A program made the position numbers and the translations under genes. Shown piece after piece: positions 1 to 64,000 of a DNA stretch of 64,000 nucleotides. The DNA is from a virus (lineage: Duplodnaviria > Caudoviricetes). Positions within the stretch are counted from its first letter, which is position 1. Each line of letters begins with the position of its first letter. Under the pieces are notes generated by a model. It did no database searches, had not been told where the DNA came from, and saw only the letters and a list, made by a program, of their open reading frames with translations. Location of the stretch: IMG/VR virus record IMGVR_UViG_3300028805_000096, positions 13,337 through 77,336 of that record. One strand, given 5' to 3'.

Positions 1-1
1 T

Positions 2-1525
2 ACAGATACTCAGAAACAGATGGCTCTTGATAGAGTTCTTACTTCTATATACCAACAGTATGGAGACATTATTCAAAGACCTATGGCACAAGTTATTAAC
101 GATGTTATGGCTTTAGCTAAAAACAAAGGTATTAGCTTATCACAAGCTCTTGAAGAAAACTTTATGTCTTTCCTTAGACAGAAGCCAGAATATCAACAGA
201 TGCAATCTATGCTCTCTGAACCTAATTTACAGATTATTTGATACAATAGTGACTGAAAGGCTGTTTACTGATATTGGGACAGTGCTACAAAAACTTTTAA
301 GCAAGTAAGTGTATGAGCTGGTGGAATTTCTACTTGATGAACTACTTGAGATGGAACATCATATATTACTAATATACAGCCATTAAATAATTTTATAAGC
401 GACCTTGAAACAAAATATGATATCGCATCTGAGTGATGAACTTGATGATGAAAGATAAGAGGTTGATGATGCTGAACAGTAGTAAATGACTATCTTGGAA
501 GTGTATGAGATAACATCAAACTATCAGAGGCTAATGATATAAAGCCTTATGCTACTAGCAAAGTGCCAGCCGAATGAGCAGTAGCTTACTTTGACTGAAC
601 TCAGTCACGAGCAACTCCAGAAACTAAAAAACACGGTCACGTTTGAATAGTAGTTTCAGATAATGGAGATACAATAACTGTGTTAGAGAGTAATGAAGGA
701 ACTTGACTTAGATATAAAGATTATAAAAAGTCTAGCGTTACTGGTTACTATGTGCCAGAATGAATAAAGACAAATGAATATAAACAAAGTGAATATGGGG
801 ATGCTTTTATAGATGCTGCCAATATAATAAAACCAAAAATGCCTTCTAATGAGGCTAGGTCAGATTTTATGGATACTGTACAAAAGTATTTGGATGTATG
901 AAAATACACGACAGCTTATGAATATATAATGTCTAACGCAAGAAATGTGGCATCAGATAGTGCTACTAGAGAAAAGCTAAATGCCGCCGAAACTGCAATG
1001 ATAGATTTAGTTGCAATTAAGGATGCTCTTGAGGCGTATTATGCAGCTTGATGAGAAACTTGAATATTACAATGAAATCTTGAAGATGTTGCCAATGCTT
1101 TAGGGAATACAACAGACCGTAGATTAGTTTGACTTACTACGAAAATAGCAGAGGCTATACAAGCATATAGGAAGAATATATCTTGAACGGCTTTCTCAGA
1201 AAAAGAAGCAGAAGACTATGAAAAACTATTCCCTACTATAAAGGCTTGACAAGAGTATAATACAGCTAAGTTAGAAGAAGTCTTACAAAGTATGATTACT
1301 AGAGCTAACTGATTATACGGTAATTTAATTTGACCTAATGTATATAAAAACCTATTGACAGCTCACGAAAGTGCAACGTGAAGAAAATACTCTGCATTCG
1401 AAGAACAGAGTGACTTGTACCAATACTTAAAGGATAATTGATATTTAAGCACTGATTGAAACGTTAAAGAACCACAAGACTTTGTTTCATATATGCAGAA
1501 CATAAGAAAAGGGAAAAGATTTTAG
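2..1525 (+). CDS. Phage A virion/ejection protein with CHAP-like peptidase domain (5' partial)
   Basis: Open to TAG 1523-1525 with TGA=G. Contains GGCGTVVNDYLG...GAVAYFDGTQSWAT...HGHVGIVV...TVLESN. Homologous to 47778-50330. Confidence 0.8.
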
Positions 1526-1543
1526 TTTGTAATATTACAACAA

Positions 1544-4051
1544 ATGTGAATATTGAGCCAATCTCAAGAAAATAAAAGAAGGCTAAACACAGCTATACAG
1601 AATACTATGCAACAGCAAAATATTGCAGATAAAAGTATTTGAGCAGAACAACCTATTTGATATAAAAGCCTTCGTGATGATATTACTTCAGTTGATACTC
1701 TGCAAGAGAGAAATACTGCTAAGAGTGTTTCTGATTTAATTAAACACAGAGTAACGCTTAGAAAAGCGATGGCTAACTGAAATCTTACAAGCTGAAATGA
1801 GGCTGCCGATTACTTAGAGATGAGAAGATGATGACTTGTAGATATATTCGCTGATTATATGATGCAGAATAAAGAACTCATAAAAGATGATGCTTCAGCA
1901 CAGTTGCTACAAGATACTATTAAAAAAGAGCCAGAAGCCATTATATGATATATGAAGAATGTTCTAAAGAACCAGTACCCAGATACTTATGAAGAAAAGA
2001 ATAAGGCAATAGATGATTATATTATGAAGTGATGAAAGCTTAATGATGTTATGGACTTCATAACAGAGAAGAACGCTACTCCATATTGAACTCCTAAAGA
2101 AGAAAAGCTAGAGTGAACTAACCCAATTCTTAACTTCTTATGAAGCACCGTAGCAACTCCTATTAGAGAGATATGATGACTTACTCAAATAGCTTGAGAT
2201 AAGCTATGATTAGACAAGCAACAAGAGGAAATAGCAAGAAAGACTGCTACTGTTGAATGAGTATCTACACAATGATATAATGAATACAAGGCAACTTGAA
2301 AGCTACCAAGTAAATTTTCAGAAGATTACGCTAACCTATATAAATGATATGATGATGCTGTAAAGGACTGATTTATAGGTAGCGTGGAAGAATATAACAA
2401 TTACTTATGAGATGTAGCAGTTGCTACTGATAAAACATTTAAGCAACTTGCCGATGACTTTACAGAGAAATACTTGTTTAACCCAAATGAAGCTTGAGCA
2501 GAACCTTGACAAGTGTTCTGAGATATAATGAGTATAGTTTTAACTGAATTATCAACAGCTTGAGCCGCCACTCCAGAATTAGCTGCTACAAAACTTCCTA
2601 AATATGCTAAATATGCAAAATGGTTATATCAATGACTTAAATGATGAGCAGAGTTCCAAGCTCTTGAAGATGCTTATGAATGAGAGTTATCAGATGTACC
2701 AGAATATGCTAAATCAGCACTTACTAATATGGTACTAAAATGATGACTAGAAAGCTTATGAAAGCTTGCAAAGCGATGAATATGAAAGCTGGCTAAATCT
2801 TTCTGATGAATTACTGAAAGAGGAGAAGTCGCTTTAGCTTGAGAAACTCCTACATCATCTGCTGAAAAGATTAAGATAATTAAAGAAAGCAAATGAACCA
2901 ACCCAGAGAGAACTCCAGAGAAAGAAATAATAAAAAGATTTCTTAATTTTAGGAAAAAGGTTAAGGATGATGTGACTTTGTTAAAATGAAAGCAAAGAGA
3001 TATTGAAAGGGCTTACAAATGAGAAGAAGACCCATCAGATTTAGCAAGTAGATTAAATGAGAATTTTGCTAAATCAAAGAACCCAGATATTATGTGAGAA
3101 CAGACAGCTAAGGTAAGTCCAGAAATTCAGATTTGAGAAACTAGAAAAGAACAGTTGATTAGAGAAAGAGATGCCGCCGCTACATATAAAGCAGAAAAGG
3201 ATGCGGCTAAAGCGGAATGAGAAAGATTATCAAAGCTATCTCCAGAACAAAGGGATAGAGAATTAGAGATAAAAGATATAGAAAAATGAGAAAAGGCTAA
3301 AAAGGCTGCCGAAGAAGAAAGAAGAAGAAAATATGAATTTAGAGTTGATAGAGAAGAACTATTAAAGAGCTGATATTGAAAAGACAATGTAGCGTTAATA
3401 GATGTTCTAAAAGAAGAATGGAATAAGATGTTTGTTAAGGAAGGTAGAGAGTTCAATGCTTCTAACCTTTGGGAACTTACAAAGTTAGTAGAAAGCAAGT
3501 CAGCTTGAACTGAATGAACTAAAGAGATAGTTGGTGCTATTAAAGATACTATGGAACAAATATCTGAATGATTATGATGAGATTATGGTAAACTTGCTAA
3601 AGAGAGTTGGAGTAAGTCAGATATATTGCAGTGACTTGATGATGTGTTATGAAAACTCACTAGAAGGACATCTGAAGCTTGATGAGAAATTGCCGCTTCT
3701 GAGGCTTGAGAAAAGGTATTAAAATGAAATTTAAGAGAGCTATTATCTCAAGCTAAAAAATACTATGGCGATGACCTAAATAGAGAAATTGATAGTTGGC
3801 TTATTCATTTGGCAATATATGACCCAGAAAAAGCTGCTGAACTAGCAAAGAACATATATCCATCTCTACCTTGAGTATTAGAATTGCTTATCAATGGAGG
3901 TAAGATGATTGCTACGAAGAAAGCGGCTAAAAATATAATAGAAAAGAACGCACCAGAAGTGCCAGAAAAGATAAGTGTTTGGGATGCTATATGAAGAAGT
4001 GTCCGCTGAAAAACAGCAGAGTGACTTGTAGATTTTGGACAAAGATTTTAG
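1544..4051 (+). CDS. Phage A large internal virion/ejection protein (835 aa)
   Basis: Continuous ORF with TGA=G, helical and charged, lying between the CHAP protein and tail genes. Confidence 0.75.
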
Positions 4052-4070
4052 TTAATATAAACCATAAATT

Positions 4071-5108
4071 ATGGAACAAATTGCAGTAAACTTTACAGAT
4101 GGATGAGTGCCAAAGACTTGACTAACTCCATTAGCTACGATTATAGACCTTAACGGTAATGTAATGGTAGAGAACGGTGTATGTAAAGAACTATGATACT
4201 GATGGTATATTTACAGCTTTGATAGATACTCTCCAGAAAAAGTATATCTATACGTATTTGATGGATGAGATACTCTTGAGAGCGATTATGATAGATATAA
4301 GTTCTGAGGTAATGAGCTTGATGCTTACTCTAATAAATATTCTTGGGGTAGAACTGCTGCACCTTACTTTACTTCTGTTAATGGTAGATTTGATAGAATA
4401 GATAAGTCTATTAAAGATGCTGTAAAGAGCAGAAAAATCTATGATGATAAAGAGGTAAGAAAAGGTTTAGCAGAAATCAAGAAAGAAATCAAAGGTAAAG
4501 GTTGATATGATGTTTATAAGAGGTTAGATAGCCTTGGAAATATTTTAGAGGAGGTTAAACAGTCAGTAGTTGACACAAGTGCCACTAATGATTGAAACAG
4601 CTCTAAGAATTTCTCTGGTATCAATGGAAAGCTTGATTTAATGGCAGAATATGTTGTTAAAATCAAAGAAGATATTGATAATCAACTTTCTAGCTTAGAT
4701 GAGAATGTAGCACAAAAGATACAAGAAAGCAATGATAACATAAACCAATGAATGTCTAATAGAGTAACTATTGAACAGCTATTACAGCAAGTAGAGAGAT
4801 TAGAGAATAAACTTAATGAGGTTGTAGATAGTGTAGTTTCTGAAAGACTGCCACAAGAACTTACAGATAAATATGATGTAAATGTAAGTAGAAAAGGTTG
4901 AATGTCTGATGAAGAAATAATGGCTGCATTAGGTATCCCAGAGAATGAATGAAATCAATATTGACTTAATCAGTGATTAAATGAATGAATGGAAATGTGA
5001 ATGGAAGAAGGGTTGAGTGAGGGTTTATGAGAAGCTAGAGAACAATGAGTTAATGCACCAGTAGATATGCAGTGAATAGCAGAACCAGAAATGCCTTTAA
5101 ATTATTAA
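4071..5108 (+). CDS. Phage A hypothetical structural protein (345 aa)
   Basis: Continuous ORF with TGA=G (MEQIAVNFTDGGVPKTGLTP...), with coiled-coil-like middle and acidic C-terminus. Confidence 0.7.
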
Positions 5109-5119
5109 TTCTAAATTAG

Positions 5120-7756
5120 ATGGTACAAATCATAACTAACAGCAACTGATGAGGATGAGTTTGATTATACAAATACAAGGGAAGCGTTGATTACTATGCA
5201 GACTTGCCTACTTCGTGATTGAAAGTATGAGATACTTATAATGTAGTTAATGCTTTCACTAAAGATGGTAAAGATTACCCAGCTTGAACTAATGTAGCTT
5301 GGACTGGTAGTGACCGAGACCCATTATGATGAAGCATAGACCTAAGCGATTATCAAAAGAAGTTAGTTGAATGAGAATGAATAGACTTAGACCAAGATAC
5401 TAATGAAATCAGTGTAGATACAACAGTTATTGCTACAAAGCAAGACTTAACTACTAAGCAAGATGTAATATCAGACTTAGATACTATTAGAAGTTGAGCT
5501 GCATTATGAGCCACATCTATACAACCTTGAGATAATGTAAGTGAATTAGTTAATGATGCTGGTTATCTTGTAAGTTCAGACTTAAAACAATCTGACTGGG
5601 GGCAAACTGATAGCTCTAAAATAGATTACATAAAGAATAAACCAACCATTTGAAATGGTACTTTGACGGTTAGTAGAAACTGAGTACAAATTAACACTTT
5701 TAGTGCTAATCAAACTTCTAATAGCTGAGTAGATATAAGTGTGCCTACTAAAACGTCTGATATAGAGAATGATAGCTGATATATCGATAAAACTGTTTCT
5801 AACTTAGATAATTACACATTAAGCTCTAACTTATGTGCAGTCGCTACAAGCTGAAAATATTGTGACCTATCTGGTAGAGTTACTGATAACTCTCAAATAG
5901 CAAACGGATGTGGTTATATCACTTCTGCAGCATTAAGTCCTTATGCTAAATGTACTGATATTCCTACTGATAACTGTCAGTTAGCAAATGGATGTTGATA
6001 TATTACTTGAATTAGTAGCACAGATGTAACTGACGCTCTATGATACACCCCATACAACTCTACTAACCCTAATGGTTATACGACTTGTACTGGTACATTA
6101 GTTGCATCAGATTTAACGCCTTATGCTAAAACTTGTGATATAAGCTGTGTATGAAAAACTAACCAATACTGCGACCTAACTTGACTTCCTACAATACCTT
6201 GAGTAATTGATGCTCTTAATTCTTCTTGTACTAATCAAGCATTAAGTGCAAAACAAGGTTGCGTATTAAATAGCTGTGTATCTGCAATTAACTGAAAGAT
6301 ACCTAGTGCTGCTACTACTTCTAATCAATTAGCAGATAAGGCTTTTGTAAATAGTTCTATCAACGCTTTAGCAGCTTTCTATATTACAAAGAATGCAGCT
6401 TGAGACCAATTTGATACTTATGCTGAGTTGGTTTGAGCTACAACATATTACAGTGGATGAGTAGTTAGAGTTCCTACTACTAACGATTATGCAATAGTTA
6501 AATCTGATGAAAACCATAGTGGAGAAACGACTAGATATAGTTATCAAACAAGCCAATGGGAATACCAATATACTGTTAACGAAACTCCTTTAACTCAAAG
6601 TCAATTAGATGCTCTAAACTCTTGAATTACTAGTGGTAAAGTATCTACTTATGACTGATATGCTACATCTAAACAAGATGTATCTAATATGGTATGTACT
6701 TTAAGTTGAGCTGATGATGCACATTATCCATCAGCAAAGGCAGTAGCAGACGCTCTAAGTTGTGCTTGAGCTTGAGATATGCTAAAGAGTGTATATGACC
6801 CTAACAACTGTAACACAGATGCTTTCAACTATAACAATCTGTACAATAAGCCTACAATACCTACAAATAACAATCAATTAACTAATGGATGCTGATATAC
6901 TACTTGTACTGGTACTCTTACAGCTTCTAATATATCTGATGCTGCTTATAGTAGTTCTTGGAATTGAGTAACTACTGTTGCACCTTCTAAGAATGCTGTA
7001 TATGATAAAATAGAAAGTGTAATATCTAGTATCCCTACAAACAATAATCAACTTTCTAACTGATGTGGTTATACTACTTGTACTTGAACATTGGTAGCAA
7101 GCGACTTAACTCCTTATGCAAAAAGTGCAGATTTAGCTGCTGTTGCTACAAGTGGTAAATACTGTGACTTATCTTGACTTCCTACAATATGAACAGCCAC
7201 TTTAACAATTCAGAAAAACGGTACTACTGTTAATACTTTCTGAGCTAATGCTACTTCAAATGTAACAGCAAATATTACAGTTCCTACAGATACTTGAGAT
7301 TTATCTAATAATGCTTGATTTATTACAGCTTCAGACTTAACCAATGGTAGCTGAATATCTATTAGTTGAACTACTATATCTAACAGTTGAGTTCTATCTG
7401 TTAATGGCAATACTTGAGCTGTAACTGTTTCAGAGTTCACGCCTTGAAGCTGAACAACTTGACAAATACTTACAAAGACTGCTACTGGATATGCTTATTG
7501 TGACGCACCAGCTACTTGAATACAATCATCTAATAATACTTATGATAATATCATACATTTATCACAATCAGATTATGATAATCTAGGGACTTATGATGAT
7601 GAAACATTATACTCTACACCAGATGGAGAGGCTTGAAGTTTTGTAGATAATACAGCTTTTTGACCTAGTTGGGATGGAGTAGTAGATAAAGCACCTAGTA
7701 TGAATGCTATATATGATGTATTAGGAGATGTTGAAACTTTACTTGCTAATATATAA
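5120..7756 (+). CDS. Phage A tail fibre protein with internal repeats (878 aa)
   Basis: Fibre motifs YKYKGSV, WTGSDWDPLGG, NQLxNGCGYTTCTGTL repeats, VLSVNGNTGAV, APSKNAVYDKI. Confidence 0.85.
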
Positions 7757-7761
7757 AATAG

Positions 7762-9318
7762 ATGACAATAGCTAGTGAAATAAGCAGATTACAGAATGCT
7801 AAAGCTGATATATGTACAGCTATAGAGAATAAATGAGTAACTGTATGAGATATAACTTTAGATAAATATTCTTGTTGTATTGATGCAATAAGTAGTGGTT
7901 GATGATGACCTTATTATATAGATTATTTAGCTGTTGGTTGATGAGGTTGATGATGATATTATTGTTATAATAACCAATATTGTCCATCTTGATGATGATG
8001 ATGAGGTTGAAATGTAGTAGAATGATGTTGCGAGCAAATACCAGTATCTGTGCCAGTTATTATAGGTAAATGAGGTAAATGATGAGCATTTTGTTGAGAA
8101 GAATGATGAAATACTACTATATGAAGTATAGTATATGCACAATGATGATGAGCTGGAAATCAACGTTGTACTTCTTGCTATACTTGAGGTATTAGTTGAA
8201 CTTGATGTGATTGATGATATTCTTGAAATACTGAAATGATGGGTGGCTGATGATGATGAGCGACTTGATGTGGTAGTTGTTCTTCAGTTTATACTACAGC
8301 ATCTAATTGATGAGCTTGAAAATGTTGATATTGATGATGATGATGAGGTTGATGAGTTTGTACTTATTGAGTTTGATGTGATTGATGATGAAATTGAGCT
8401 TGCAGATATAACTCATCTACTTGCCGTCCTTGTGCATATGCTACTAATGCAACTAATTGTTGATGATGATGAGGATGAGGTTATCCTTGAGGAAATTGAG
8501 CTTGATGAATAGTTAAAATATCATACCCAGCAGATTGAAGTTATTGATTTGAAAAAGCAGAATGAGGAGTAATTACTTGTGAAGGTTGAATAATAACTCA
8601 TACATTCACAGAAAGTTGAGAGTTTAGGATAGCCCACGAAGATGGTTTATGCTATGTAAATTATATGGTTGTGTGATGATGATGAGCACCAAGAAAAGGC
8701 TCTACTTCTATGGGTGGTGCTTGATGAGAGGTAATATTATGAAGAATATCCGTTGAGTGATGTTTAGGTATAACAATAGGATGCTGATGAAATTGTTGTA
8801 CTTGATATGAAAGTTGATGAAATAGTAAATTAGATTATTGAGGATGATGTATTATAGCAACTTGAGGTAAATTTGGAAGTTTTAATAAGAATTATATATC
8901 GTGAAGTTGTTGAAGTTCACAATATATGCCTTGATGAGCTTGAGCCAGATGAAATTGATGAGATGCTGAATTTAGCTATTCAAGATGATGAGCTTGATGA
9001 CAATGATATTGATGCTATTGATGGGGATGAGATTGAGGAGGATGCCGTTGTAGAAGTCATACAGGTACTTGATGAGTTTGATGAAGTTACTATGCTAGTT
9101 ATGATTGATGCGATGCCACTTGTTATTGAAGTTGATGATGAGGTAGTTATAGTAGTTGATATCCTTGAAAGTGATGTCAATGAGTAGTAGATATATGCTA
9201 TCCTACAGATTGAAGTTATTGATTTATGAGTGCTACTTGATGAGATTGTTGTTATACTTGTGATGGGATGTGCGTACATAGATTTACTTCTAACTGAACA
9301 TTTACAATAGTTAGTTAA
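7762..9318 (+). CDS. Phage A Gly/Cys-rich tail-associated protein (518 aa)
   Basis: Runs of TGA codons give GGGGGG tracts. Two tandem glycine-rich domains (YLAVGGGGGGG...HTFTESG; YMVVGGGG...HRFTSNG). Confidence 0.85.
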
Positions 9319-9341
9319 TTTAATTTATAATTAATATATAA

Positions 9342-9851
9342 ATGGCTTTATATAGATGAAGTACAAAACTAGCTGGTATATGAGCTTGATTTAACCCTAC
9401 AAATCTATGAACTCCTAACCAAGTTTTGAAAAGGAATAGTAATTGATATGGATGGGATGATGTAAACGAAGTACCTAGCTGATGAACTGAAGGACAAGTT
9501 CTAACAAAATGAGCTAGTGGTTTTTGATGGGCGGATGCTGCTTGATGATGAGATTTTACACTTTTGGCTACTTTGACACGGAAATGAAGTAAAACACTTA
9601 GTATTACTTGATACAAGGCTATTTTATTTGTGGCTACATACAGATACTGAAGTTACAGCCAATATTACGCTAGTTCTGCCACTATTCCCACAGATGTAAT
9701 AAGCACTATTATTCAATGAGGAGGAAGCTTAAAAGTTGAGATGAAAAAATTATACAACGATAATACTGTAGCCTATGTTGATATAAATAGCTCTTTAGTA
9801 TTCTCTAATAATTCATCTGCAGACCCTATATATGTCTACTGAATTAGTTAA
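9342..9851 (+). CDS. Phage A small tail fibre accessory protein
   Basis: ORF MALYRGSTKLAG...PSGGTEGQVLTK, a typical fibre linker motif. Confidence 0.7.
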
Positions 9852-9875
9852 TTTTAACTCTTAATATAATAACAA

Positions 9876-9908
9876 ATGGCTTGTGGAAGATGATGAAAAA
9901 AGAAGTAG
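9876..9908 (+). CDS. Micro-ORF MACGRGGKKK
   Basis: AT/A-rich leader like other genes. Paralogous to 12457-12492 and 29574-29612. Confidence 0.5.
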
Positions 9909-9942
9909 AAAAAACAAAAATTTATCTTTTAATCAAAATAAG

Positions 9943-10182
9943 ATGAAGAACTTTCGAACTAAACTAAGTGTAACCAAATTAGTATTAATAATTATGGTAT
10001 TAATACTAGGTTTCCAAACTGTGTATCTAACCCTACAATGAGTAGAAACATCTCTATTTAACAATGTTATGCTATCTATCATTGCTTTCTATTTCGGTCA
10101 AAAGAGTATGCAGTATTCAGAGCCAGATAGTTTAATGAAAGATTTACCTACAGAAAATGAAAAAAATGGAAGTAATATTTAA
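9943..10182 (+). CDS. Phage A holin-like two-TM protein
   Basis: MKNF[CGA=W]TKLSVTKLVLIIMVLILG...IIAFYFGQK; two hydrophobic segments. Homolog at 29615-29863. Confidence 0.75.
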
Positions 10183-10390
10183 CTACATAACTGACCCAAA
10201 TACTATAGTAACATTGATAGCTTTTATCTTTGGAGTTTGAGTTGCTTGGAGTAACTTAAATTCCAAGGTAAAGGACATAGAAAAGAGAGTAGAGAAGATA
10301 GAAGATTTAGACTTAGATAGCAGACTAACTAAAATGCAAGTTGATTTAGACCGAATAAAAACTGTACTAAGTGAAATCAAAAAGAAATAA
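10166..10390 (+). CDS. Small TM plus coiled-coil protein (lysis-cassette type)
   Basis: One hydrophobic helix followed by ...RLTKMQVDLD[CGA=W]IK. Confidence 0.7.
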
Positions 10391-10472
10391 GTCAAGCTAA
10401 AGAAAAAATTTACTATTGATTTATCTATTTTTAGTTGCAGTATAAAGATACTTTATATCTGCCTAATCAAAA

Positions 10473-10688
10473 ATGAAAGAAACAACACACAAATATAAAG
10501 ATAACTATGTTATATTGAGATTTGATGAGAACGAGAAAGACTGGAGGACGAACTGAAGAAGCGAGTATTGGACTTGAGATGGATGGAAGCCTTGACCTGA
10601 TAATGCTAAAAAATTCTTGTTTGAAGAATGGGCAGAACAAGAATTAATATCTATTAGGATAAAGAGGGCTGCTTTACTTAAATGATAA
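10473..10688 (+). CDS. Hypothetical protein
   Basis: 71-aa ORF with TGA=G and a typical leader. Confidence 0.55.
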
Positions 10689-10784
10689 ATATGGTGGACT
10701 ATATTGAGTGGATAATATATAAGATAAGCAAGCTATTTACTAATGCTAGAATGAGGAAAATTATTTCAGCATATAAAAGCAAGT

Positions 10785-11099
10785 ATGAAAAGAGAAAATA
10801 AATATAACATACATCACTGGCTTCCTAAAAGCAGATGATGAGATAACAACGATTTGAACTGTGAAATGATAAAGGTCACAACTCACGATGCTATCCACAC
10901 TTTGTTTAGCAATATGATATTCCCAGAGCAGATAGAGAGTTTAACAAGTAGAACTTCTAGGGTATTATTGCCAGAGATACAGAGGGAATTACAAGAGTGG
11001 TTAAGCATTAGAGATATACACGACCCTACACAATGGTATAAAGAATGATGTATTTTAATGCCAAAAAAACACAAATGGATAAATTTAGATACTGAGTAG
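10785..11099 (+). CDS. HNH-like small protein
   Basis: HHWLPKSRGGDNNDLNC...HDAIH. Positional and sequence counterpart at 54215-54550. Confidence 0.7.
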
Positions 11100-11239
11100 A
11101 ATGAGATAAGTGCAGACAAGGGATAGGATGGAAAGAGACTTGTTGGAAATGTAGTTTTGAGTTGCTATGTTTATTTCAACAAAACCAAGAAAGAATATGA
11201 AGTGATATTCACGAAGCAAAGAAGACTTCAGACATTTAA
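11075..11239 (+). CDS. Small four-Cys protein
   Basis: DKCRQGIGWKETCWKCSFELLCLFQQNQERIG. Clear homolog at 54051-54218. Confidence 0.6.
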
Positions 11240-11256
11240 TTTATAATAAATACAAA

Positions 11257-11490
11257 ATGAGCAAAAAAGAATTAACTTATGTCTTTTGACCGGACTGTTC
11301 TAAATGCCATCAACTTAGACCATACGTAGAGAAATGGTGTAGTGAGAATGGATATAACTTTGTTCCTATGCAGTATTGAGAAGACTTATTAGATATAACT
11401 TCAATACCTACTGCTATACTTGATAGAGGAGATGGAAAGGAGATGTTAGATTTTGATGGAATTGTACAGCTTTTATCTTCTAAAAAATAA
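11257..11490 (+). CDS. Thioredoxin/glutaredoxin-like protein
   Basis: FGPDCSKC CxxC motif and SIPT cis-Pro motif, 77 aa. Confidence 0.75.
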
Positions 11491-11492
11491 CA

Positions 11493-12341
11493 ATGGCTGA
11501 CATTAACTGATGTTTATGATTAGGGGAGGCTACCTCTGATTTTTTATTATCTGCCGAAGAAATAGATACTCTACCAGAGATACCTATGCAAGATACTAAG
11601 ATATTTGAGTATAACCAATGAACTACTCCTCACTGTACTTTATACTCTGCTTTATGAGCTGTCTCAGACTTGTTTAACTATGAATGGAAACAAAATGAGA
11701 TAGATGAGATAGTAGAAGAAAGCTATAAGAGAGGTAGAGTTAAATGAGAATGATGGTATATTAAGTTGGCTGTTAATCTTGTAGCTGACTATTGGAATGA
11801 ACATCATTCAGATTTAGGTAAGGTTGTATATTATAGAGTTAGTCTATATGATACTGAATTAGTTGATAAAATCTTACAAAAGAACTATACACTATGTAGC
11901 TGATATAAATGAAATACTGCCTATAAGAATGATAGAGACGATAACTGAGTATTAAACTGAACATCTTTCTGAGCTTCTACTTACTGACACGCTGTTAGTT
12001 GGATAGGTAGAGGGGGTAAGAGATTTATTAAGGACAATTATAAAGGAAGAAAGAAATGAAAGCTATCTACTAATATATATGAAGTAGAGCATAAACCATC
12101 TGAATTAGTTAGTGGATGATGTTATTATGCTGATGCTTATCTATACATAAAAGTAGATAACTCTGAAGAGATAAAAAGATTAGAAACTTTGAAGACAGAA
12201 TGTAATAATTGTATCAAACAGTTATGAATTATACGACATTTAGTGAATGATACGAATTTTCAGTGAATTTTACACTATACAGCAGACAAACTTAGAGCGA
12301 AAATAGCTGATGCAGATAGAGAGCTCAGTAAGTACCGTTAG
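11493..12341 (+). CDS. Papain-like cysteine peptidase (phage A)
   Basis: NQGTTPHCTLYS (Q..C), YGHAVSW (His) and IKDNY motifs. Confidence 0.75.
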
Positions 12342-12456
12342 TGAAATGAAAATAAGACACGTAGAAATTCTGAGCTGAATAATTATTCATCTGTGAATAT
12401 AAACGTGTCTTAAAATAATCAATTTACTTTACATTTATATCATAACTATATATAAT

Positions 12457-12492
12457 ATGCCTTGTGGATGAAGAGGAGGAAAGAGGAAATAA
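12457..12492 (+). CDS. Micro-ORF MPCGGRGGKRK
   Basis: Last ORF before the late terminator. Near-identical peptide at 29574-29612 in the same position in phage B. Confidence 0.6.
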
Positions 12493-12509
12493 AAAATTCT
12501 TTCCAACTT

Positions 12510-12540
12510 AAAAAGAGAGAATAAACATCTCTCTTTTTTT
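12510..12540. terminator. Bidirectional intrinsic terminator
   Basis: AAAAAGAGAGA-ATAAACA-TCTCTCTTTTTT between convergent operons. Confidence 0.8.
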
Positions 12541-12558
12541 GGTTATGATTTTTTGTGA

Positions 12559-12708
12559 CTAGAGTAATATAATTATTAGCAACCGAAATACAATACCAAA
12601 TATTATACAACCAATATTACTCTTCTCACTAATATAACTTATTAGCAATATAATCAAAGGTATTCAGAACTCTATGAATAATATTGCTCATACTATTGTC
12701 CAGAACAT
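12559..12708 (-). CDS. Small membrane protein
   Basis: 49 aa, two hydrophobic stretches. Confidence 0.55.
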
Positions 12709-12709
12709 T

Positions 12710-12919
12710 TTAGCAAATAGGTCAAGAACTAAAAAACTGTATAAAATTAAATATTAAAGATATAAACAAAGCAATTCACAATCGGTATGCTCGTATATAT
12801 AAATTATCGTTAAGTATATCTATTTTCCAATAAGCCTTTTCATAAGCCTCCGCTTTTTTATAGGCTTTATGCACTTCTTCCATAAGTTCTGCCTTACTAT
12901 CTCGTTTTGTTACTGCCAT
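12710..12919 (-). CDS. Hypothetical protein with C-terminal TM
   Basis: 69-aa ORF MAVTKWDSKAEL... Confidence 0.55.
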
Positions 12920-12926
12920 TGTTATA

Positions 12927-13790
12927 TTATTTATAAAGTAAATCTACATTTGAAATTACTTTATCTAAGAATTTCTTAGTGAATTTATTAGTTCACTGAT
13001 TAGATATATCAAAGTTAAAGTCATTCATTCATAATCTTAATGGCGTGTGAGCTACCATAGGATACTCTCTCATATTTATGTTGCTTTCATATCCATATCT
13101 CTCTGCATCCGTCCCAGCCCATACTACTAATGCTTTTCTTCCAAAAGCCTTTGAGCAATGATGTAAAGAACTATCACATCATACAACTGGGTATCTAGCT
13201 GTTAGGGATACAACTAATCTTAAATCTGGAGTATCGCACATTTGACAATTCTTTAACACTGGTTGACTTCATTGTTTAATAACCTCATATAGAGTATAAC
13301 CTTTCTTTGTTAGTTCATCTGCTATATACTGTGCTGCATCAACTGGTATAGAACGATAACTCTTATCAGCTCAGTTTAATCACATTGTACTTCAGAATGG
13401 TTGATATAGAATAGGCTTCTCTCATTGTAGGAAATTGGACATCTTTTCGTGTTCTGCTAAGAATAAACAAGGTTGTGGAATAGTATCTCACTCTATACCT
13501 AATTGTTTCTTAGCAATATATAACCAGTTCTTAGCATCATTAAAGAACTCTGGGTCAGTATAAGGTTCAAGCTCTATATAATCATTCCCTTTGATTACAT
13601 CCTCAAATAAACGCCTATCATCTAATCAATGTACAGATTTGATGTAAGGGTTTCATCGGAATACTAGAGGTCGTGATGTAACAACTTTTACTGGTCTTTT
13701 CTTTGCCACCTCCGATATAGCACCAGTCATTGCTACCACTCTACCAAGTCATCAGTCAATTCTAACGACTAAAGTTTTTTGTTCTGTCAT
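12927..13790 (-). CDS. GT9-like (heptosyltransferase-like) glycosyltransferase
   Basis: N-terminal RIDGGLGRVVAMTGAI and C-terminal VGCDSSLHHCSKAFGRKALVVWAGT motifs, 287 aa. Confidence 0.7.
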
Positions 13791-13812
13791 ATTATATTTA
13801 TTAAGGAATAAA

Positions 13813-13938
13813 TTATTTATTATGCTCTTTTCTTCGCTTGTCTTGTTGTTCTTTATAAACAATTTTACTACAAGCTAGACAATACTTTTTTGGTCATCTT
13901 CAACCTATTTCTTTTCCACATCTTTCACATTGTTTCAT
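13813..13938 (-). CDS. Small Zn-finger protein
   Basis: MKQCERCGKE...KYCLAC. Confidence 0.6.
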
Positions 13939-14072
13939 CCTTTATTTCTATTAGGCATATAAAAGTCGCATAGTATATGTGCTATTTCTCTCATCCTTTC
14001 TTTGTTCTGTTCTTCGAACTCTGAAAGGTCGTTTAGTTCTTCAACTAACTTATCTATTTCAGCTTTCTCCAT
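13905..14072 (-). CDS. Hypothetical protein
   Basis: 55-aa ORF. Confidence 0.5.
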
Positions 14073-14081
14073 TGTTATTAG

Positions 14082-14276
14082 TTAATCTCTAAACATTCTA
14101 TCTAACAACATAGGGTCATATCAATCATATTCATCAGTCTCATCATAATCACTATCTGCATATTTATCCTCTATGTCGCACATAGCATTAAATAAGCACT
14201 CTCTGCAATTCTCTATCTTAACTCACATTAAGCAGTTCTTGCATTCTTCTTCTCTTACTTTATCTAGTTTGTCCAT
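14082..14276 (-). CDS. Small Cys-containing acidic protein
   Basis: CKNC...CREC, acidic tail; preceded by the TAATCAGACTTTTAT leader. Confidence 0.55.
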
Positions 14277-14304
14277 AACCTATAAATTAAAATATAAAAG
14301 TCTG

Positions 14305-14457
14305 ATTACTTCAAGTAGCTTATCAAATCTTCAATAGGTGTATCTGATATTGATAGTAGCATTAGCAACCTATCCTCTCATCACAATTCTCAATAGTATC
14401 AGTCATCTAACTCTATTTGTAATCTGAATTCTTTAGTTTTTTGCACTCGGTCTATCT
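14305..14457. repeat. Direct repeat, copy 1 of 63848-64000
   Basis: 151/153 identical, offset 49,543 bp. Confidence 0.95.
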
Positions 14458-18067: not shown

Positions 18068-18089
18068 GGCTGTTGTTTGGTTAATGTTA

Positions 18090-20394: not shown

Positions 20395-20410
20395 GGATTC
20401 ATAGTTGTTT

Positions 20411-53049: not shown

Positions 53050-53970
53050 TTATTTAAGAGGTAATTCTTCATTTATTTCAGGATATGCTGTCCTGTAAGC
53101 TTGGCTTAGTTTTACTATTGCTTCTTTTACTGCAGCTGGTTCTTTATCGTATTGTTTTTTGAGTGCGTTTAGTACAACTACAGCTACGTTTTTTCTTTTT
53201 AAGTATTCTGGATCTTTCTTTGCTTGTTCTTTTTTGAATAGTGGTCGGTATCTCCAGTTGAACATTCAAGAGCATAATTTCAAGTCTGAATATGACACGT
53301 AGAATCTACTTTTGTATCATTTACCGTCGTTTGTTCTTCGGCTATTTACGAACCGTAAGCCTCATGTGTCCCATCATACTAGACAGATTGCATGTCCTCC
53401 TGTTCTTTTGTCTGCTTCTATGTATGTTTTTAGTTGTCCATTTGTTAATTCATTCCATGTAGTTTTATTTCATCTCAAGCACCATGCTATTGGACATCCT
53501 GCGTAGAGGTAGCGTTTCATCTTATCTATATCTCTATCCATTCAGCTCCATGAATCATAACTATATCCATCGAACTTTGCATAGTCTCATTCTACTGTTG
53601 CTATTCCTAGCTTTAATGCTGTATTGATTGCTTTTTCTACGTAATCTCCACTATCGTTTTTATCGTCTAGGTCATGTCACATTTTTCCCCACAAGTCTTT
53701 TCGATCTGGAGTTACGATATTCTCCTTTGTTGGCTCTACTCCTTTATCTTTTACTGCGAGTACCTGTACTCCGTGACTTGTTGCGTTAGCTGTACAGCTT
53801 CCCCAACCGTTCTGATAGTTTGTTTTCCATATCCATTTTCACAATGAAAATGATTTAGGAAGTTCTACTGTTAGGTCTAGCTTGATGACTTCTTCTGCTT
53901 TGAAGTCTCTTTCGTCCATCATGTCCTCTGATAGAGTTAGGCATCCTGGATCTTCTCTGATTTCTGACAT
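53050..53970 (-). CDS. Papain-like (C1) cysteine peptidase (phage B)
   Basis: YQNGWGSCTANA, GGHAICLVGWD, L[CGG]FVNS[CGA] = LWFVNSW. Confidence 0.85.
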
Positions 53971-54050
53971 TTTTTTATAAGGTTTAAATCTAAAGTCCCT
54001 TAGGGTTGATTTTATTGGCATTTTGTCTTTATATTTTATATAAAGTTGCT

Positions 54051-54218
54051 CTATGAAGTCTTCTCTGTTTCGTGAGTATCCTTTCATAGTCTTTCTTGGT
54101 TTTGCTCAAATAAACAAAGATTCTCAAATAAGCACCTATAACAACTTTCTATTGCTAATCTGTATCTGCATTCAGATTTTTCTTTTCAGTATCTGTAGTT
54201 TTTTTCTTTTTCTTTCAT
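54051..54218 (-). CDS. Small four-Cys protein
   Basis: SECRYRLAIESCYRCLFENLCLFEQNQERLG. Homolog of 11075-11239. Confidence 0.6.
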
Positions 54219-55698: not shown

Positions 55699-56874
55699 CT
55701 AGGCAATTGTTGTTCCGTCTCACTTTGATCCCCAAAGTCCGAGTGATGCAACTCTTGAGAATTCGAAGGCATAGTCTCCGATAATCTTCATGTTTGCATT
55801 GTCAGTGTTGTTGTCGATCCAAGTTTTCAATCCGAATCCAGATCCGTTCAAATTAGCCATTTGAAGAGATTTAGTTTGATTGATGAATCTTGTATTTCTA
55901 ACGAACCAGTTAGTTGTATTACCAACTGATACACCGTCTTCATTTGTCCATCCGAAGATTGACATAGGGATAACTCTAACTTTATATCCTCTCCATGAGA
56001 ATACATTTCTTTGAGCAGAGTTTCCGTTAGCGTCTGCACTCTTTCCATTGAATTCGTAAGGAACCCATCTTGAGTCTACGTTAAGGATCTTTCCTGCTTC
56101 AGCCTCTAACTCGATAGGTACGATTAAGTCGTATACTCCATCTAAGTTATCAACTTTCATTCAGTTCTGAAGAACTGGTCCTTGTAATCCATCTTGTAAT
56201 GTTCCTTTCAAAGCCTTAATTGCGTGCAATAATGCTTCTTCAGAGAATACTGGGTGGATTATGTTTCCATTCACTTTCATTCCACAGTTAGCATATTCTG
56301 CTGTACCGTCTTTGAATGGGTGGTGAATAGAGAATAATGGTTCTCCATCTTCTCCAGTTCCAGCTGGTCCATTTATTTGAGTAGCTGAGAATCCTCTAGT
56401 ATATAATGAAGCTCCAAGCTCTAGTAATTTTCTGATTCCAGATCTTACTAATCCAGTAGAACTTTCTTTGATGTGACGTAAGTATTGAATTCCTGTAGTA
56501 TCGTTAGGGATATTAGATAATTCTCTACTTGTCTGTAACCATTGAGTAAGTAATCTTGTATATACAACTTTACCTCCCCAAGTGTGGAATTGATATCCTT
56601 TGTTTGCTCATTTAGCAACGTGGATATCTGGAGCGATTCCTGATTCTGGAATTTCTTTGATGTCTCCGAACTCTCCAGCTGATGAGAATCTCTCTGTTGG
56701 TGAGTATACAGTTTTTGGAGACAATGCAAGTTTGCTCAATTCTCCAGCTAGGTCGTATCCGTGAAGTTCTTCTTCCATTACGTGAGTCAATAATGGATTC
56801 AATAACTTATGACCTCATCCGAAGAAACTTATCTGTGTATTGAAGTCTACACCTCATGTTAATTGGTAAGCCAT
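55699..56874 (-). CDS. Major capsid protein (391 aa)
   Basis: Follows the scaffold and decoration genes. DGEPLFSIHHP, LIVPIELE; strongly biased codons with few TGA. Confidence 0.8.
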
Positions 56875-59257: not shown

Positions 59258-60847
59258 TTAGATAATTATACCGTGTATTGTTTGTTGGAGTTCCTGGTAT
59301 TTATTCGTTACAGGTTCTCCTGGCTCTGTTTTTTGCACATACTCAGTGGTCTGACCTGGATAACTCTTCGGAATATTCCTCCATATCTCCACTACTTGAG
59401 CTAGTGCGTCCACTACGTCGACTTTCTCTGAGTTAGGGAACTCTAGTATTTGTGTCAGTAGCTTTGTTTTGTAATCAGCTCTTATGTTCTCGTTCAGGTA
59501 TGTCTGTCTTCAGCTGATTGCAGGTTCTAGGTTGTATGTAATTCTATCTAGTTTGTTTCATTTTCCTCTTGGCTTGTAGTGATACAGCCAATCTCTACGT
59601 CCTGTTGCTACCTGTGACTCATTCAGTAGGTTTCGGAACTCGACCATTCATGCGTTGAATTGTCCTACGTCCTCACATCCTATGAATCTCAGGTGGAATC
59701 CCATCGCCTCTCGCCTGTTTATCATCAGGTAGAGATAGTTGATTGCTATTGTCGGTGCGAACGTATCCGCACAGATGTCCAGGATGTATATGTGTCCCGT
59801 GCTGATTCTTCTTCCTGTTAGTATTATTGCTGTGTCACAGCTCTTGGAGTTGGAACTGAGTGCAGGATCTATTCCTATTCCTAGTTCCAGGTCTCTCTTA
59901 CTCTCTTCATTGTCTATGTCGGAGAGTCTTACAGGGATTAGGTCGTCTGGGTTTAGCAGTCCTCCCATTGCTCCTATCGGATCTTGCATGTACAATGCTT
60001 CAAATCCTCTTGGATCTTGCATTTGTATTCTCCTAAGTGAGTTCACGCTGAATCTCTCTGGTCGGAATGATTGCCGTTTGTCCTCATAGTTTCCTGTTCC
60101 TGTATAGTTTGGGTTTTCTATCAGTCATTTAATGTTGAGTAGCTTGAAAGGTTCGTATTCTATTCCCTCAAGCTTCATCTGTTCCTCTAGCTTTTGTATT
60201 CTTCCTACAAGGTCGTCCACATGCCAACGTGTCATGCAGATTATTGTTGCGGATTTATCGTTTTGCTTACGGGTTGATAATACCTGTGTGTACCATTCCC
60301 GTACTTTGTTTCTATATGTTGGAGAGCTTGCCTCCTCTGCGTTCTTTACTACGTCGTCGACTATTAGAACGTTCGCTCATTTTCAGGTTGCGACTCATCC
60401 TACTGAAGTAGCGACGAATTTTCACCCCATTGTGTTTTCCCATTCCTGTGCCTGTGCCTGCGATAGTTTCATTTCTCCGAATATTGCTGCGTGTCTCTCT
60501 GACGTTACGTATCTTTTTGCCTTATTTGAGAACTCTTTGGCTAGGTCTGGAGAATATGACGCAAGCATGAACTGCATTCTTGGGTTTATTCCCATTGCTC
60601 GTGCGGGGAATATCTGTGATACTAGTGCTGACTTTCCTGTTCTTGGTGGCATGGTTATGATCAGGTTCTTTGTTTTTCCGATCATTACCTCTTCTAGTGC
60701 GTTACAGATATCTTCGTGGAATGGTTTCACTGCGAAGCTTCCGAACGGTTCGAATATCCACTGTGCATAACTAAGCAGGTTCGTTTTGCATTGTATCCTC
60801 AACTGGTCAAGTTCCTCCTGTGTCAGTCTGTCCTGTGGTTTCGCCAT
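59258..60847 (-). CDS. terL: Terminase large subunit (529 aa)
   Basis: ITMPPRTGKS, FPAW, LIVDDVVK, CMTRWHVDDL, ALYMQDP, GIDPA, DVVDAL. Confidence 0.93.
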
Positions 60848-61850
60848 TTACGAATTGGGTAATATTTAAAGCCTTTGTATTGTGTTTGTTTCCTATCATT
60901 TCTAGTACTTTGTCCGTATTCTCTGAAGCAAGGATTGCTATATTTGCTACATTTGGTAGGTCATCTTTTGGATAGAGGTTTGTTGCCTTTCCGATTGACT
61001 CTGCCGTGTTCCTTATCTCCTTTGCTATGTTGATTTTGTCCTGTTTTGTGTTATCGTTTTTCTGGAATTCGTCCATTAGGATTCCTAGTGCATAGGTCAT
61101 TGCTGCCTGTGCGGTCTCCTTTGTGAAGTCTATTCCGTCCATCAGTTCCTGTCTCCTTTGGATCTTTATTACTTTCAGGTATTCTTTGACCTGTGGATTC
61201 ATTCTGTAGTGATACTGTCTAAGTTCCTTACTTCGTCAGACGTTTTCACTAGCTTTTGCTTCTGACATTCCGTTTAGGACATTCAGACATCGATAGTATT
61301 CTTGTTTGGATAGTCCCATGTCCTGTGCTATTTGTCTGTATTCTTCCCTATCGTTGAAGTATTGTTGTACTTCTTCCTGCTGTCTATTCAGGAATTCGAG
61401 AGCTACTTTTGCATTCCCTTTTTTCATAGATTGCATGAGTGCCAGTCTAGCTATTTTTTCCTGTTCAGCTTCAGCTTTTAGGATTTCATTTTTCACGAAC
61501 GTTGGTTTTTCTATTATCATTCCAGCGTCTGTTGTTTTGTCTGTGTATTTTAATCCCCTTTCAATGAAGTATTCAGCTCTAGTCTCTCATAGTCAGAGAG
61601 CTTTTACTGCTACCTTTCGGTTTACTCACTCTCTGATTTGTTGGACTAGCATCCTAACTTCGTTTTCTGGGATTGGATCGAATGGAGAGTTTACTCATTT
61701 GGTTGTTAGTTTATCCGTGGAATCCCGACTTTGTTTTCTTACGGACTCTTTGGCTCAGTTTTTTACATGATTCATTAGTGTAGATTTTGCTCTGGGATGT
61801 TTTCTATTTTCGTACAGCTTTCCATTCTTATCTCTTGGATAGTCTGTCAT
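60807..61850 (-). CDS. Putative terminase small subunit / DNA-packaging protein (347 aa)
   Basis: Track ORFs 60807-61202 and 61236-61520 plus upstream sequence form one frame with TGA=G; directly upstream of terL. Confidence 0.6.
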
Positions 61851-63190
61851 TAGTCTGTTTCGTTAATAAATGTGAAATCTATGTCTCTGTTCAGACATCT
61901 TATTCCATCCACCTTTCCCTCCGTTGCTGTTCTTCCTGTGTACTCTGCTCGTCTCTGTAGTACTGCTTGTACGTATCCAGGCGACATCTCGATTCCGTAG
62001 AAGTTTCTGTCCCATTTCTGACATGCTATCAGAGTTGAACCACTTCCTGTGAATGGATCTAGTACTGTGTCTCATATCAGACTTGAATTTAGCACCATTT
62101 TCTCGAGTAGCCATACAGGTTTCTGAGTTGGGTGGATATATAGTGCAGAGTTCTCTTTTTTCTCTGTCCATACTGTTGTTTTTCCGTGTTTCTCTGCCTC
62201 TCTGTTTGCGTCTATTATTCTTTTTAGCTTCTCTGGCGTGATTTTTTCCCGATCTATCTCTTCCACGTCCGCCTGGAAGATTGTATCTCCGTAGAATTTC
62301 TCTTCTCCTTTGATGGAATAGAAGCAAAGCTCATGTTTTCTCTTGTAACTTCCTCCTACGTGGTTGTAATGTGTCTTATTCCAGACTATTTGTGCCTTTA
62401 TATCTGTGAATTTACTTACTGTTGCCTTGAAACATTCTTCCCATTCCCGTCCGTGGAACGTGTACCAGCTGGCTGGTTTTGTTGTATGTTTGTCGATTAG
62501 CTCGTATGCGTCGTCCAAGAAGAACTGGAAGTTGTCATTTTTGAGGTTATCGTTTGCGATTCCATTGCTTGTTTTCTTTCCTCTTCCTTTATAGTTTACA
62601 TTATATGGGGGATCTGTTAGGAGTAGCTGTGCTTGTACGTCTCCGTAGTATTTATCTATTGTTGAATCTCCGCAGACTAGGATGTGCGTCATGTTTTTGT
62701 CCTTTAATTCGAAGATATCTCCGAATTGTACTGCGAGTTTCTCTCCGTCTACTGGAAGTATTGCGACATCTTCCTCTACAAGGTCTCTGTCTTCTTCCTC
62801 TAATTTGAGTTTGAAATCTTCATACAGTTTCTCCAGCGTGTATCTCTCCTCTCCTGTTGACTCCATAATCTCTTTACGGATAGCTTCTTTGTCATACTCT
62901 GCGAAGTCAGCCGTCTTATTTGCGAGATGTCTATACAGTTTTTTCTGACTTTCGTCCATGTCATCATATACGATTACGGGGATTTTGTCGAGTCACAGCA
63001 TTTTGGCTGCCTCTACTCTTCCGTGACCTGATAGGATGACCATATTTTCGTCGACTTCCACAGGATTTCTCATTCCCACCTTTTTGATGGAGTCTGCGAT
63101 TTTCCCCACGTCCTCTTCGTCGTGGATTTTGTTGTTGAGCTCGTATCCGATAAGCTCGTGTGGATCTAGGTATTGGATCTTATGTTCCAT
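61850..63190 (-). CDS. ParB-like N-terminal domain fused to an N6-adenine/N4-cytosine DNA methyltransferase (446 aa)
   Basis: NNKIH...ILSGHGRVEAA (ParBc), TDPPYNV, HPTQKPV, VLDPFTGSGSTLIAC. Confidence 0.88.
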
Positions 63191-63561
63191 TAGTTGGCGT
63201 TACAATATCTAAAATTGCTTTTATCTTCGTCTGTTTTATACAATAATGTTGTTGGTGCAGGATTATAATCTCCTCTTGGATATCAGTTTGATATTCCTCC
63301 GAGTGTGAACGTTGATGTTTCTGGTTCGTCTTTTTTCTCGTGTTCCAAAAATCAGTAGAGTTCCCATAGCTTTTCTACTGCGTTTTCGTATGCGATAGCT
63401 GCTCCTGTTCTCTGGTCGTAGTCTTTAGGATCTATACAGCTTGAAGTTCCGACTACTTCGAATCCGTTATCTAAAGTTAGTAGACATACTGTTGTCTTTT
63501 TTCCCATGTCGTGATATTCGTGTTTCACGATATGTCTTATAAGGTCTTTTTTAGTTAGCAT
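63190..63561 (-). CDS. Gp49/66-family phage protein
   Basis: TVCLLTLDNGFEVVGTSSCIDPKDYD...GAAIAYENAVEKLWELYG. Confidence 0.8.
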
Positions 63562-63847
63562 GACAATAAATTTAGAAAATAAAATATTCACTATGCATAT
63601 TGCGAACGGTATCCCGTCTTTCCCGCTAACAATATGCGATAGTGAGATAGCGTCGACGTAATTTCCCTTGCGGTACTTTCATGTCCCACTATCGGGTGTA
63701 TTATTTCTTAGATTCAGAATGTTTATACATTCAAGAGAATATTTTCTGACCGTCGGGTGTTACGCACCCTCTTACGAATAGTTGACGGAGACTATTAATT
63801 ACTTTGTATAGAGTTGTATCTAAATTTCAAGAGATTTTTATCTGCTC

Positions 63848-64000
63848 ATTACTTCAAGTAGCTTATTAAATCCTCAATAGGTGTATCTGATATTGATAGT
63901 AGCATTAGCAACCTATCCTCTCATCACAATTCTCAATAGTATCAGTCATCTAACTCTATTTGTAATCTGAATTCTTTAGTTTTTTGCACTCGGTCTATCT
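63848..64000 (-). repeat. Gene X copy 2 (3' end, runs off the window); direct repeat of 14305-14457
   Basis: 151/153 identical. The two mismatches are synonymous (GAA/GAG, TTG/TTA). Confidence 0.93.

Follow-up and report, generated by a model that had tools for sequence, protein, structure and literature searches.

Two phage genomes joined on one sheep gut contig very probably share the genetic code predicted for Absconditabacteria, with TGA read as glycine and CGA and CGG as tryptophan

We analyzed 64,000 bases of viral DNA (the window) that form the end of one 77,336-base virus record, IMGVR_UViG_3300028805_000096, from a sheep gut metagenome. The record is coding-dense under translation table 25, and in-frame TGA codons occur in it by the hundred. 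An original prediction, made from the letters of the window alone, held that it carries two phages and that both read TGA as glycine (Gly) and CGA and CGG as tryptophan (Trp). We found two terL genes and two structural (head) gene sets on the one contig, so that there are indeed two phages, which we call A and B. We conclude that both very probably use the predicted code of Absconditabacteria (candidate division SR1), on two genomes that were joined by the assembler. Under this code TGA would be a frequent Gly codon and CGA and CGG would be Trp codons synonymous with TGG, while CGT, CGC, AGA, and AGG would stay arginine (Arg) codons and only TAA and TAG would remain as stops.

The features of the two phages within the window are listed in Table 1. 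The terL, portal, major head, and SU10-type adaptor genes of phage A lie upstream of the window and are followed by plus-strand tail genes inside it, where the G+C content is 0.31 to 0.34. This part of phage A holds CGA codons at 608, 2774, 5315, 11212, 12234, 13656, and 13671 and a CGG codon at 9579. Phage B, which carries its terL, an adaptor-like gene, tail genes, and a replication module on the minus strand, holds 77 CGA/CGG codons. The called genes of the window together contain 87.

Table 1. Features of phages A and B in the window, with the positions of recoded codons where these are discussed
Feature	Position	Strand	Phage	Remarks
Distal 14.3 kb of 27.7-kb phage A fragment	1–14330	+	A	Podovirus-like; tail and virion genes, with small late genes
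CHAP-domain protein	2–1525	+	A	
835-aa protein	1544–4051	+	A	
Tail-fibre-repeat protein	5120–7756	+	A	
Glycine-rich protein	7762–9318	+	A	518 codons, 120 of them TGA (23%)
127-bp word, internal copy	14331–14457		A, B	Within small conserved gene 14306–14677 (minus strand), common to both phages
Complete circular unit, 49,543 bp	14331–63873	-	B	Early/replication module at about 17.8–26.2 kb, late module at 30.0–63.6 kb
HNH endonuclease	19726–20424	-	B	CGA 20326, 19915, 19783; CGG 19990
NinG-like protein	20411–20929	-	B	Pfam NinG; six CGA/CGG codons, no TGG
HTH_36 replication-initiator-like protein	25226–25879	-	B	CGA 25757; CGG 25742, 25382, 25274
tRNA-Met(CAT)	29444–29516	+	B	Between early and late modules
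Two paralogous Fib_succ_major-type receptor-binding-like genes	30025–31602 and 31628–33004	-	B	Internal control
Papain-like/NlpC-P60-like cysteine peptidase	53050–54087	-	B	CGG 53353; CGA 53338, 53245, 53701, 54070
Presumed capsid gene	55699–56874		B	
terL	59258–60847	-	B	CGA 60599, 60062, 59711, 59633; CGG 60299, 60074
ParB-N6/N4 DNA methyltransferase	61850–63190	-	B	CGG 62447, 62249; CGA 61949
127-bp word, terminal copy	63874–64000		B	Closes the phage B circle

The final 127 bases of the contig are an exact match to the internal copy of this word, and a word of 127 bp is a common assembler word length. Depth, read from the Logan contigs of the source runs, was about 14 to 16x to the left of the internal copy (the phage A side) and about 83 to 110x to its right (the phage B side). 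Unitigs and contigs from the source runs break at the 127-bp word, and in one source-run contig the sequence preceding the terminal copy sits directly before 14305 onward, which gives the closed phage B circle. A 50.5-kb contig from a relative of phage B (L001) is colinear with the window from 63841 into 15718–16701, that is, across the contig end. The contigs of phage B relatives measure 47 to 50.5 kb and never adjoin A-type genes, and those of phage A relatives measure about 39 to 41 kb. Because of the depth jump, the unitig breaks, the closed B circle, the colinearity of L001, and the sizes of the relatives' contigs, we read the two genomes as assembler-joined: the record is an assembly chimera of 27.7 kb of phage A and a complete, circular phage B. 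Alternatively, the contig could be one real molecule, in which phage B has integrated into phage A via their shared gene or which represents a composite phage. It was, after all, assembled in one piece, and the joint falls in a small gene that is homologous between the phages. Nevertheless, this seems quite unlikely given a repeat of exactly 127 bp, the difference in depth with its unitig breaks and closed circle, and relatives of each phage that stand at their own sizes.

The small gene at the joint is also found at 63793–63907, and it gave matches of 33 to 43 nt at 84 to 88% identity in several genomes of a class that contains Gracilibacteria. We found no Pfam family for this gene, which both phages have; possibly it is mobile and conserved widely.

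We examined what the reassigned codons stand for in 11 related phage loci, whose conserved genes were aligned with those of the window codon by codon, with CGA and CGG masked as X during alignment. TGA paired with GGA, GGT, and GGG throughout these alignments: of the aligned TGA sites, 114 of 375 in phage A and 59 of 106 in phage B (173 in total) had a GGN partner. The called genes end in TAA (39) or TAG (15) and never in TGA. When the phage A terL was set against 19 standard-code loci, TGA stood at 8 of its 15 conserved Gly columns. In addition, the glycine-rich protein of phage A matches Pfam Gly_rich_2 (PF21722, 60.7 bits) only when TGA is translated as Gly. TGA makes up roughly 3 to 8% of codons in the window, and it supplies 66% of the Gly codons of phage A overall (73% in its window part) and 46% and 44% of those in the early and late genes of phage B.

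The same alignments separate CGA and CGG from the Arg codons. A CGA/CGG partner was found at 16 of 69 TGG sites in phage A (20 of 182 pairs) and at none of 233 AGA/AGG/CGT/CGC sites (0 of 607 pairs; Fisher p = 1e-11). For phage B the corresponding counts were 18 of 52 TGG sites (39 of 218 pairs) and none of 204 Arg sites (0 of 758 pairs; Fisher p = 2e-14), so that both phages together show such a partner at 34 of 121 TGG sites versus 0 of 437 Arg sites. Within the part of phage A that lies in the window, the figures are 4 of 22 TGG sites, with CGA as the partner, and 0 of 97 Arg sites; here the CGA at 5315 pairs with TGG. CGA has TGG partners in both phages. Viewed from the CGA/CGG codons of the window, the partners were CGA/CGG in 97 pairs, TGG in 37, and phenylalanine (Phe) or tyrosine (Tyr) codons in 10; Arg-codon partners were confined to one variable site, 51529. 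In phage B alone these pairs comprised 71 with CGA/CGG, 30 with TGG, 6 with Phe/Tyr codons, and 3 with an Arg codon, all three at 51529. CGT acts as an ordinary Arg codon, its partner being CGT in 28 pairs, AGA in 13, and AGG in 3. The partners of CGG by itself were, in phage B, TGG in 14 pairs, CGA in 12, and an Arg codon in none, and the phage A lineage contributes three TGG-CGG pairs and one CGA-CGG pair.

Individual genes repeat this pattern. At the six CGA/CGG sites of the phage B terL, relatives have only TGG, CGA, or CGG, and at five of the six at least one relative has TGG. The methyltransferase sites are likewise CGA or TGG in relatives. In database translations of the terL-B relatives, Arg and Trp alternate both at columns where the window has CGA/CGG and at columns where it has TGG, and the terL-A family shows the same alternation, with true Arg columns being 100% Arg.

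The original prediction had rested on eleven motifs, and every one of them is present on the minus strand where it had been placed: FPA[CGA] (60599–60610) and KV[CGG]EWY (60290–60307) in terL, L[CGG]FVNS[CGA] (53338–53358) in the papain-like peptidase, TI[CGG] (19990–19998) and CR[CGA]AT (19777–19791) in the HNH endonuclease, GYC[CGA]ATN (25748–25768) in the initiator, QR[CGA]AEYTG (61934–61957) in the methyltransferase, and the remaining four in the receptor-binding-like paralogues. These paralogues, along with repeats inside the first of them, swap CGA and TGG at four positions without recourse to any other genome. The S[CGA]TKLY motif (CGA 30040–30042) is matched by S[TGG]TKLY with TGG at 31192–31194 and 32102–32104, and NL[CGA]GG (CGA 30844–30846) by NL[TGG]GG (TGG 31760–31762) and also by TGG 30442. 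The CGA at 31462 corresponds to TGG 32372, and the CGA at 30982 to TTT 30568.

Relatives that share a code cannot reveal which amino acid is meant, and we therefore turned to distant homologues that use the standard code. For terL-B, terL-A, and NinG, we tabulated the amino acids at the columns aligned with each codon, after removing rows with Trp at conserved Gly columns (TGA-recoded sequences called with table 4). The eight CGA columns gave log-odds of +26.1 bits for Trp, +1.9 for Phe, -1.3 for Tyr, and -17.8 for Arg, and the twelve CGA and CGG columns together gave +30.5 for Trp and -32.9 for Arg. The 29 TGA columns gave +66.6 bits for Gly and -70.3 for Arg. As controls, TGG columns pointed to Trp (Arg -12.2 bits) and AGA columns to Arg (+58.2 bits). 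With the recoded rows gone, little remained of the Arg counts at CGA/CGG columns, and we thus regard those counts as translation artifacts.

Residue 83 of terL-B, the CGA of FPA[CGA], is Trp in 96 of 109 standard-code homologues and Phe or Tyr in the rest. The claim that such sites are family-invariant Trp positions fits this motif well; it was overstated for KV[CGG]EWY, where homologues have Trp in 41 cases, asparagine in 38, and lysine in 21. Residue 179 of terL-A, also CGA, is Trp in 15, Tyr in 3, and Phe in 1 of the 19 standard-code bacterial loci, and the conserved Arg columns of that protein are CGT and AGG. In NinG, residue 81 is Trp in 50 of 115 standard-code homologues, residue 159 is Tyr, Phe, or Trp, and the conserved Arg columns are all AGA.

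Profiles and structures provided further comparisons. All three profiles of the HNH endonuclease scored higher with Trp than with Arg at the CGA/CGG sites (phrog_374, 174.1 versus 151.2 bits, +22.9; phrog_8790, 71.4 versus 51.5, +19.9; phrog_3377, 70.2 versus 54.0, +16.2). The gain was smaller for HTH_36 (47.4 versus 42.1, +5.3) and for Terminase_6N with the phage B terL (36.6 versus 31.9, +4.7). Taken by themselves, the Pfam results were mixed, with the terminase, HTH_36, and NinG families favoring Trp and the methyltransferase and Fib_succ families favoring Arg, and we therefore relied on tests of single sites. Among Protein Data Bank (PDB) structures, the Trp of the papain-family Asn-Ser-Trp motif in 3ois aligns with the CGA at 53338, and in 6win (Tae2) Trp aligns with both the CGG and the CGA of L[CGG]FVNS[CGA]. 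The three methyltransferase sites fall on Trp (9c3u), Tyr (9c3u), and Phe (2zie), and the one that falls on Trp is a CGG. A PDB search with terL-B returned only chance matches, and a scan of viral contigs with the same protein gave no pattern match.

Taken together, relatives' codons, standard-code columns, profiles, structures, and paralogues agree in both halves of the contig, as the original prediction of triple recoding had it: they support CGA and CGG as codons that would specify Trp, or at least an aromatic residue, and never Arg, alongside TGA as Gly. Several points count against this reading. The amino acid at the recoded codons is deduced from conservation only. The gene set consists of longest open reading frames rather than the output of a trained gene caller, and the relatives are partly redundant, with L001 and L002 nearly identical and likewise L005 and L006. 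The only CGG of the phage A window part, which is the single CGG of that phage, has no aligned relative, and two CGA sites of NinG fall on variable columns rich in glutamate, aspartate, and lysine. In addition, three Pfam comparisons do slightly better with Arg: N6_N4_Mtase loses 2.2 bits and Fib_succ_major 3.5 bits with Trp, and HTH_24 matches only with Arg. These deficits are probably due to the heavier penalty that a mismatched Trp incurs where conservation is weak, and we did not count them for Arg because the same sites show Trp, Tyr, or Phe or because the columns are weakly conserved.

If only TGA were reassigned, as in plain table 25, CGA and CGG would have remained Arg codons and their Trp-like placements would be due to chance or to real Arg/Trp polymorphism. 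The Pfam deficits just described would fit such a code, as would site 51529, where CGA pairs with AGA in three relatives. It is hard to reconcile, however, with the complete absence of CGA/CGG partners from Arg sites when more than a quarter of TGG sites have one, with the strongly negative Arg score at standard-code columns, with the 16 to 23 bits that HNH loses with Arg, or with a CGA codon at the tryptophan of the papain-fold Asn-Ser-Trp motif, and we consider it scarcely credible.

A second possibility is that CGA and CGG, and CGG especially, are decoded ambiguously or as Tyr or Phe. The tabulation over distant homologues bore out Trp for CGA and Gly for TGA, but for CGG alone, over four columns, it returned +4.4 bits for Trp versus +4.5 for Tyr and hence no separation of the two, which is a further point against a firm Trp assignment. 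The 10 pairs of CGA/CGG with Phe/Tyr codons could be taken in the same direction. Swaps with TGG are far more numerous, though, and TGG itself pairs with Phe/Tyr codons at a similar rate; CGA columns clearly favor Trp over both Phe and Tyr, and CGG and CGA interchange freely. Tyr, Phe, or ambiguous decoding is thus very improbable, if a little less so than unchanged Arg, and we continue with Trp as the likely meaning of both codons.

Given three reassigned codons, we asked how the phages would have them read. The original prediction had found no matching transfer RNA (tRNA) on the contig, and ARAGORN, run down to a 90% threshold, detected none with anticodon TCA, TCG, or CCG. The contig is not devoid of tRNA genes as such, since it carries the tRNA-Met(CAT) of Table 1 (also recovered by Rfam RF00005 at 43.7 bits in a local scan), which is its sole tRNA and may be an elongator or initiator tRNA-Met or a tRNA-Ile2. 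The 13.4 kb upstream gave no tRNA, and of the eleven related loci only L009 has one, a tRNA-Tyr. Whole-window Rfam scans returned nothing and missed even the tRNA-Met, and for this reason we treated Rfam as giving no evidence on tRNAs and used ARAGORN. Lowering the ARAGORN threshold to 80% gave 18 weak candidates, which we treated as false, most of them being of unusual length and located within genes. Because neither phage has a tRNA for TGA, CGA, or CGG, we infer that host tRNAs read all three, presumably a tRNA-Gly(UCA) for TGA and Trp-type tRNA(UCG) and tRNA(CCG) for CGA and CGG, in a host that would lack release factor 2.

The code points to Absconditabacteria as the likely host. Ruminant gut is a habitat compatible with these bacteria, and Campbell et al. 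reportedly described UGA as Gly, the table 25 code, for SR1 in 2013. As the original prediction had stated, Codetta predicts CGA and CGG as Trp atop UGA as Gly in Absconditabacteria, with tRNA(UCG) and tRNA(CCG) described as the decoders (Shulgina and Eddy 2021; PMC8629427). The host might instead belong to another TGA=Gly lineage that also reads CGA and CGG as Trp, such as a clade of Gracilibacteria, in some of which CGG is a predicted Trp codon (PMC8629427). We consider this rather unlikely, since the prediction of Trp for both codons is confined to Absconditabacteria (PMC8629427) and CGA is the commoner reassigned codon here.

No direct link to a host was found among the genomes searched, which leaves room for such another lineage. 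Matches to clustered regularly interspaced short palindromic repeat (CRISPR) spacers had been put forward as a check. A comparison confined to 20 kb of phage B, out of the two phage genomes, with 401 genomes of a class holding a Gracilibacteria-labelled genome gave only short, weak matches, none of the six inspected lying in a repeat array. The presumed phage B capsid protein found no prophage relative in the same sample. The closest genome-binned relative of terL-A, which is 61% identical, lies on a TGA-recoded, 33-kb phage-like contig (L040) in the bin of a 0.9-Mb genome, G001, and this would also suit a host other than Absconditabacteria. In G001, rpoB contains no in-frame TGA, the tRNA(UCG) looks similar to the genome's Arg tRNAs, and a search for tRNA(UCA) found none. 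As the genome looks standard-code, we rejected this bin as host evidence; L040 is either a mis-binned contig or a recoded phage associated with a standard-code cell.

The code itself is already known for bacteria, and code-25 phages of this host group are also known. Phages A and B resemble the Absconditabacteria code in having the same three codons with the same new meanings, a low G+C content, AGA as the main Arg codon, CGT and CGC kept as Arg, and more CGA than CGG; per 10,000 codons, CGA occurs about 20 to 70 times and CGG about 1 to 54 times, the order reported in PMC8629427. They differ from the cells in that the code here stands in two phage genomes without tRNA(UCA), tRNA(UCG), or tRNA(CCG). 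Liu et al. 2023 (PMC10746230) described code-25 phages with Absconditabacteria and Gracilibacteria as their predicted hosts, and A and B are like these in being TGA-recoded and in their presumed host group, which in that study was judged by table 25 coding density. That work emphasized code-11-compatible phages, from which A and B differ in being heavily TGA-recoded, and the terms "CGA," "CGG," and "arginine" appear nowhere in its text.

By full-text searching we found no literature report of CGA or CGG as Trp in phages. Few phages in the literature follow the reassignment of a sense codon, and the only ones we found are two assemblies of Bacilli phages predicted to read AGG as methionine, which likewise lack a cognate tRNA (PMC8629427). 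Phages A and B are like them in that they would follow a host's sense-codon reassignment with no cognate tRNA and presumed host decoding, and unlike them in the codons and amino acid concerned and in that two sense codons and one stop are reassigned together. Stop-codon-recoded phages, as summarized in PMC10746230, deviate from the code of their hosts and bring their own suppressor tRNAs or release factors. Genes of A and B are similarly unreadable under table 11, but the two phages match the code of their presumed host, bring no decoding tools (only the tRNA-Met), and extend their recoding over early and late genes and to sense codons. The original prediction had included lysis genes in this span; the CHAP and papain-like domains are indeed recoded, but they belong to a large virion-module protein and a neighboring gene that are at most putative endolysins.

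CGA and CGG as Trp has so far been a computational prediction from cellular genomes, and two unrelated phage lineages provide independent comparative support for it. Standard translation, and even table 25, misreads the proteins of these phages. All of the relatives that we fetched from databases (loci L001 to L012, proteins P0001 to P0289) had been gene-called with TGA as Trp (table 4) and CGA/CGG as Arg, and in alignments these miscalled sequences show Trp/Arg alternation at Trp columns and Trp at Gly columns. Public protein sets therefore carry systematic Gly-to-Trp and Trp-to-Arg errors, which damage conserved motifs such as the papain Asn-Ser-Trp and the Trp sites of terL. The three-codon signature is usable as a marker for host prediction, and for metaproteomic proof of the code, the tail and CHAP proteins and other abundant virion proteins with CGA codons would be practical targets.

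Finally, we compared the use of the reassigned codons among gene classes. In phage B, CGA and CGG account for 68% of Trp codons (23 of 34) in the early genes (17798–26249) and 32% (54 of 171) in the late genes (30025–63561; Fisher p = 1.5e-4), and TGG is wholly absent from five early genes. The early share is higher than in most host genomes of PMC8629427. Two relatives show the same direction, with early versus late shares of 0.80 versus 0.37 (L003) and 0.67 versus 0.15 (L004), although these are small counts from homologous genes. The major head gene of phage A (L007:7703-8863, upstream of the window) has no TGA among 30 Gly codons and no CGA or CGG, and in five relatives it has one or two TGA; of the 46 Gly codons in the presumed capsid gene of phage B, 5 are TGA, and this gene too is free of CGA and CGG. 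It is conceivable, though doubtful, that synonymous choice in the altered code is structured by expression class rather than neutral, with host-specific codons tuning or gating expression. If so, early genes might work only in cells with a Trp-type tRNA(UCG), and capsid genes would be kept on abundant standard tRNAs.

One tract of phage B departs from its surroundings in composition. Between 16050 and 17800 the G+C content is 0.46, A is nearly absent from the plus strand (AT skew -0.66), and the minus strand has a low-complexity frame rich in threonine, arginine, glutamine, histidine, and lysine that is free of TGA. L001 matches part of this tract, at just 69% identity.

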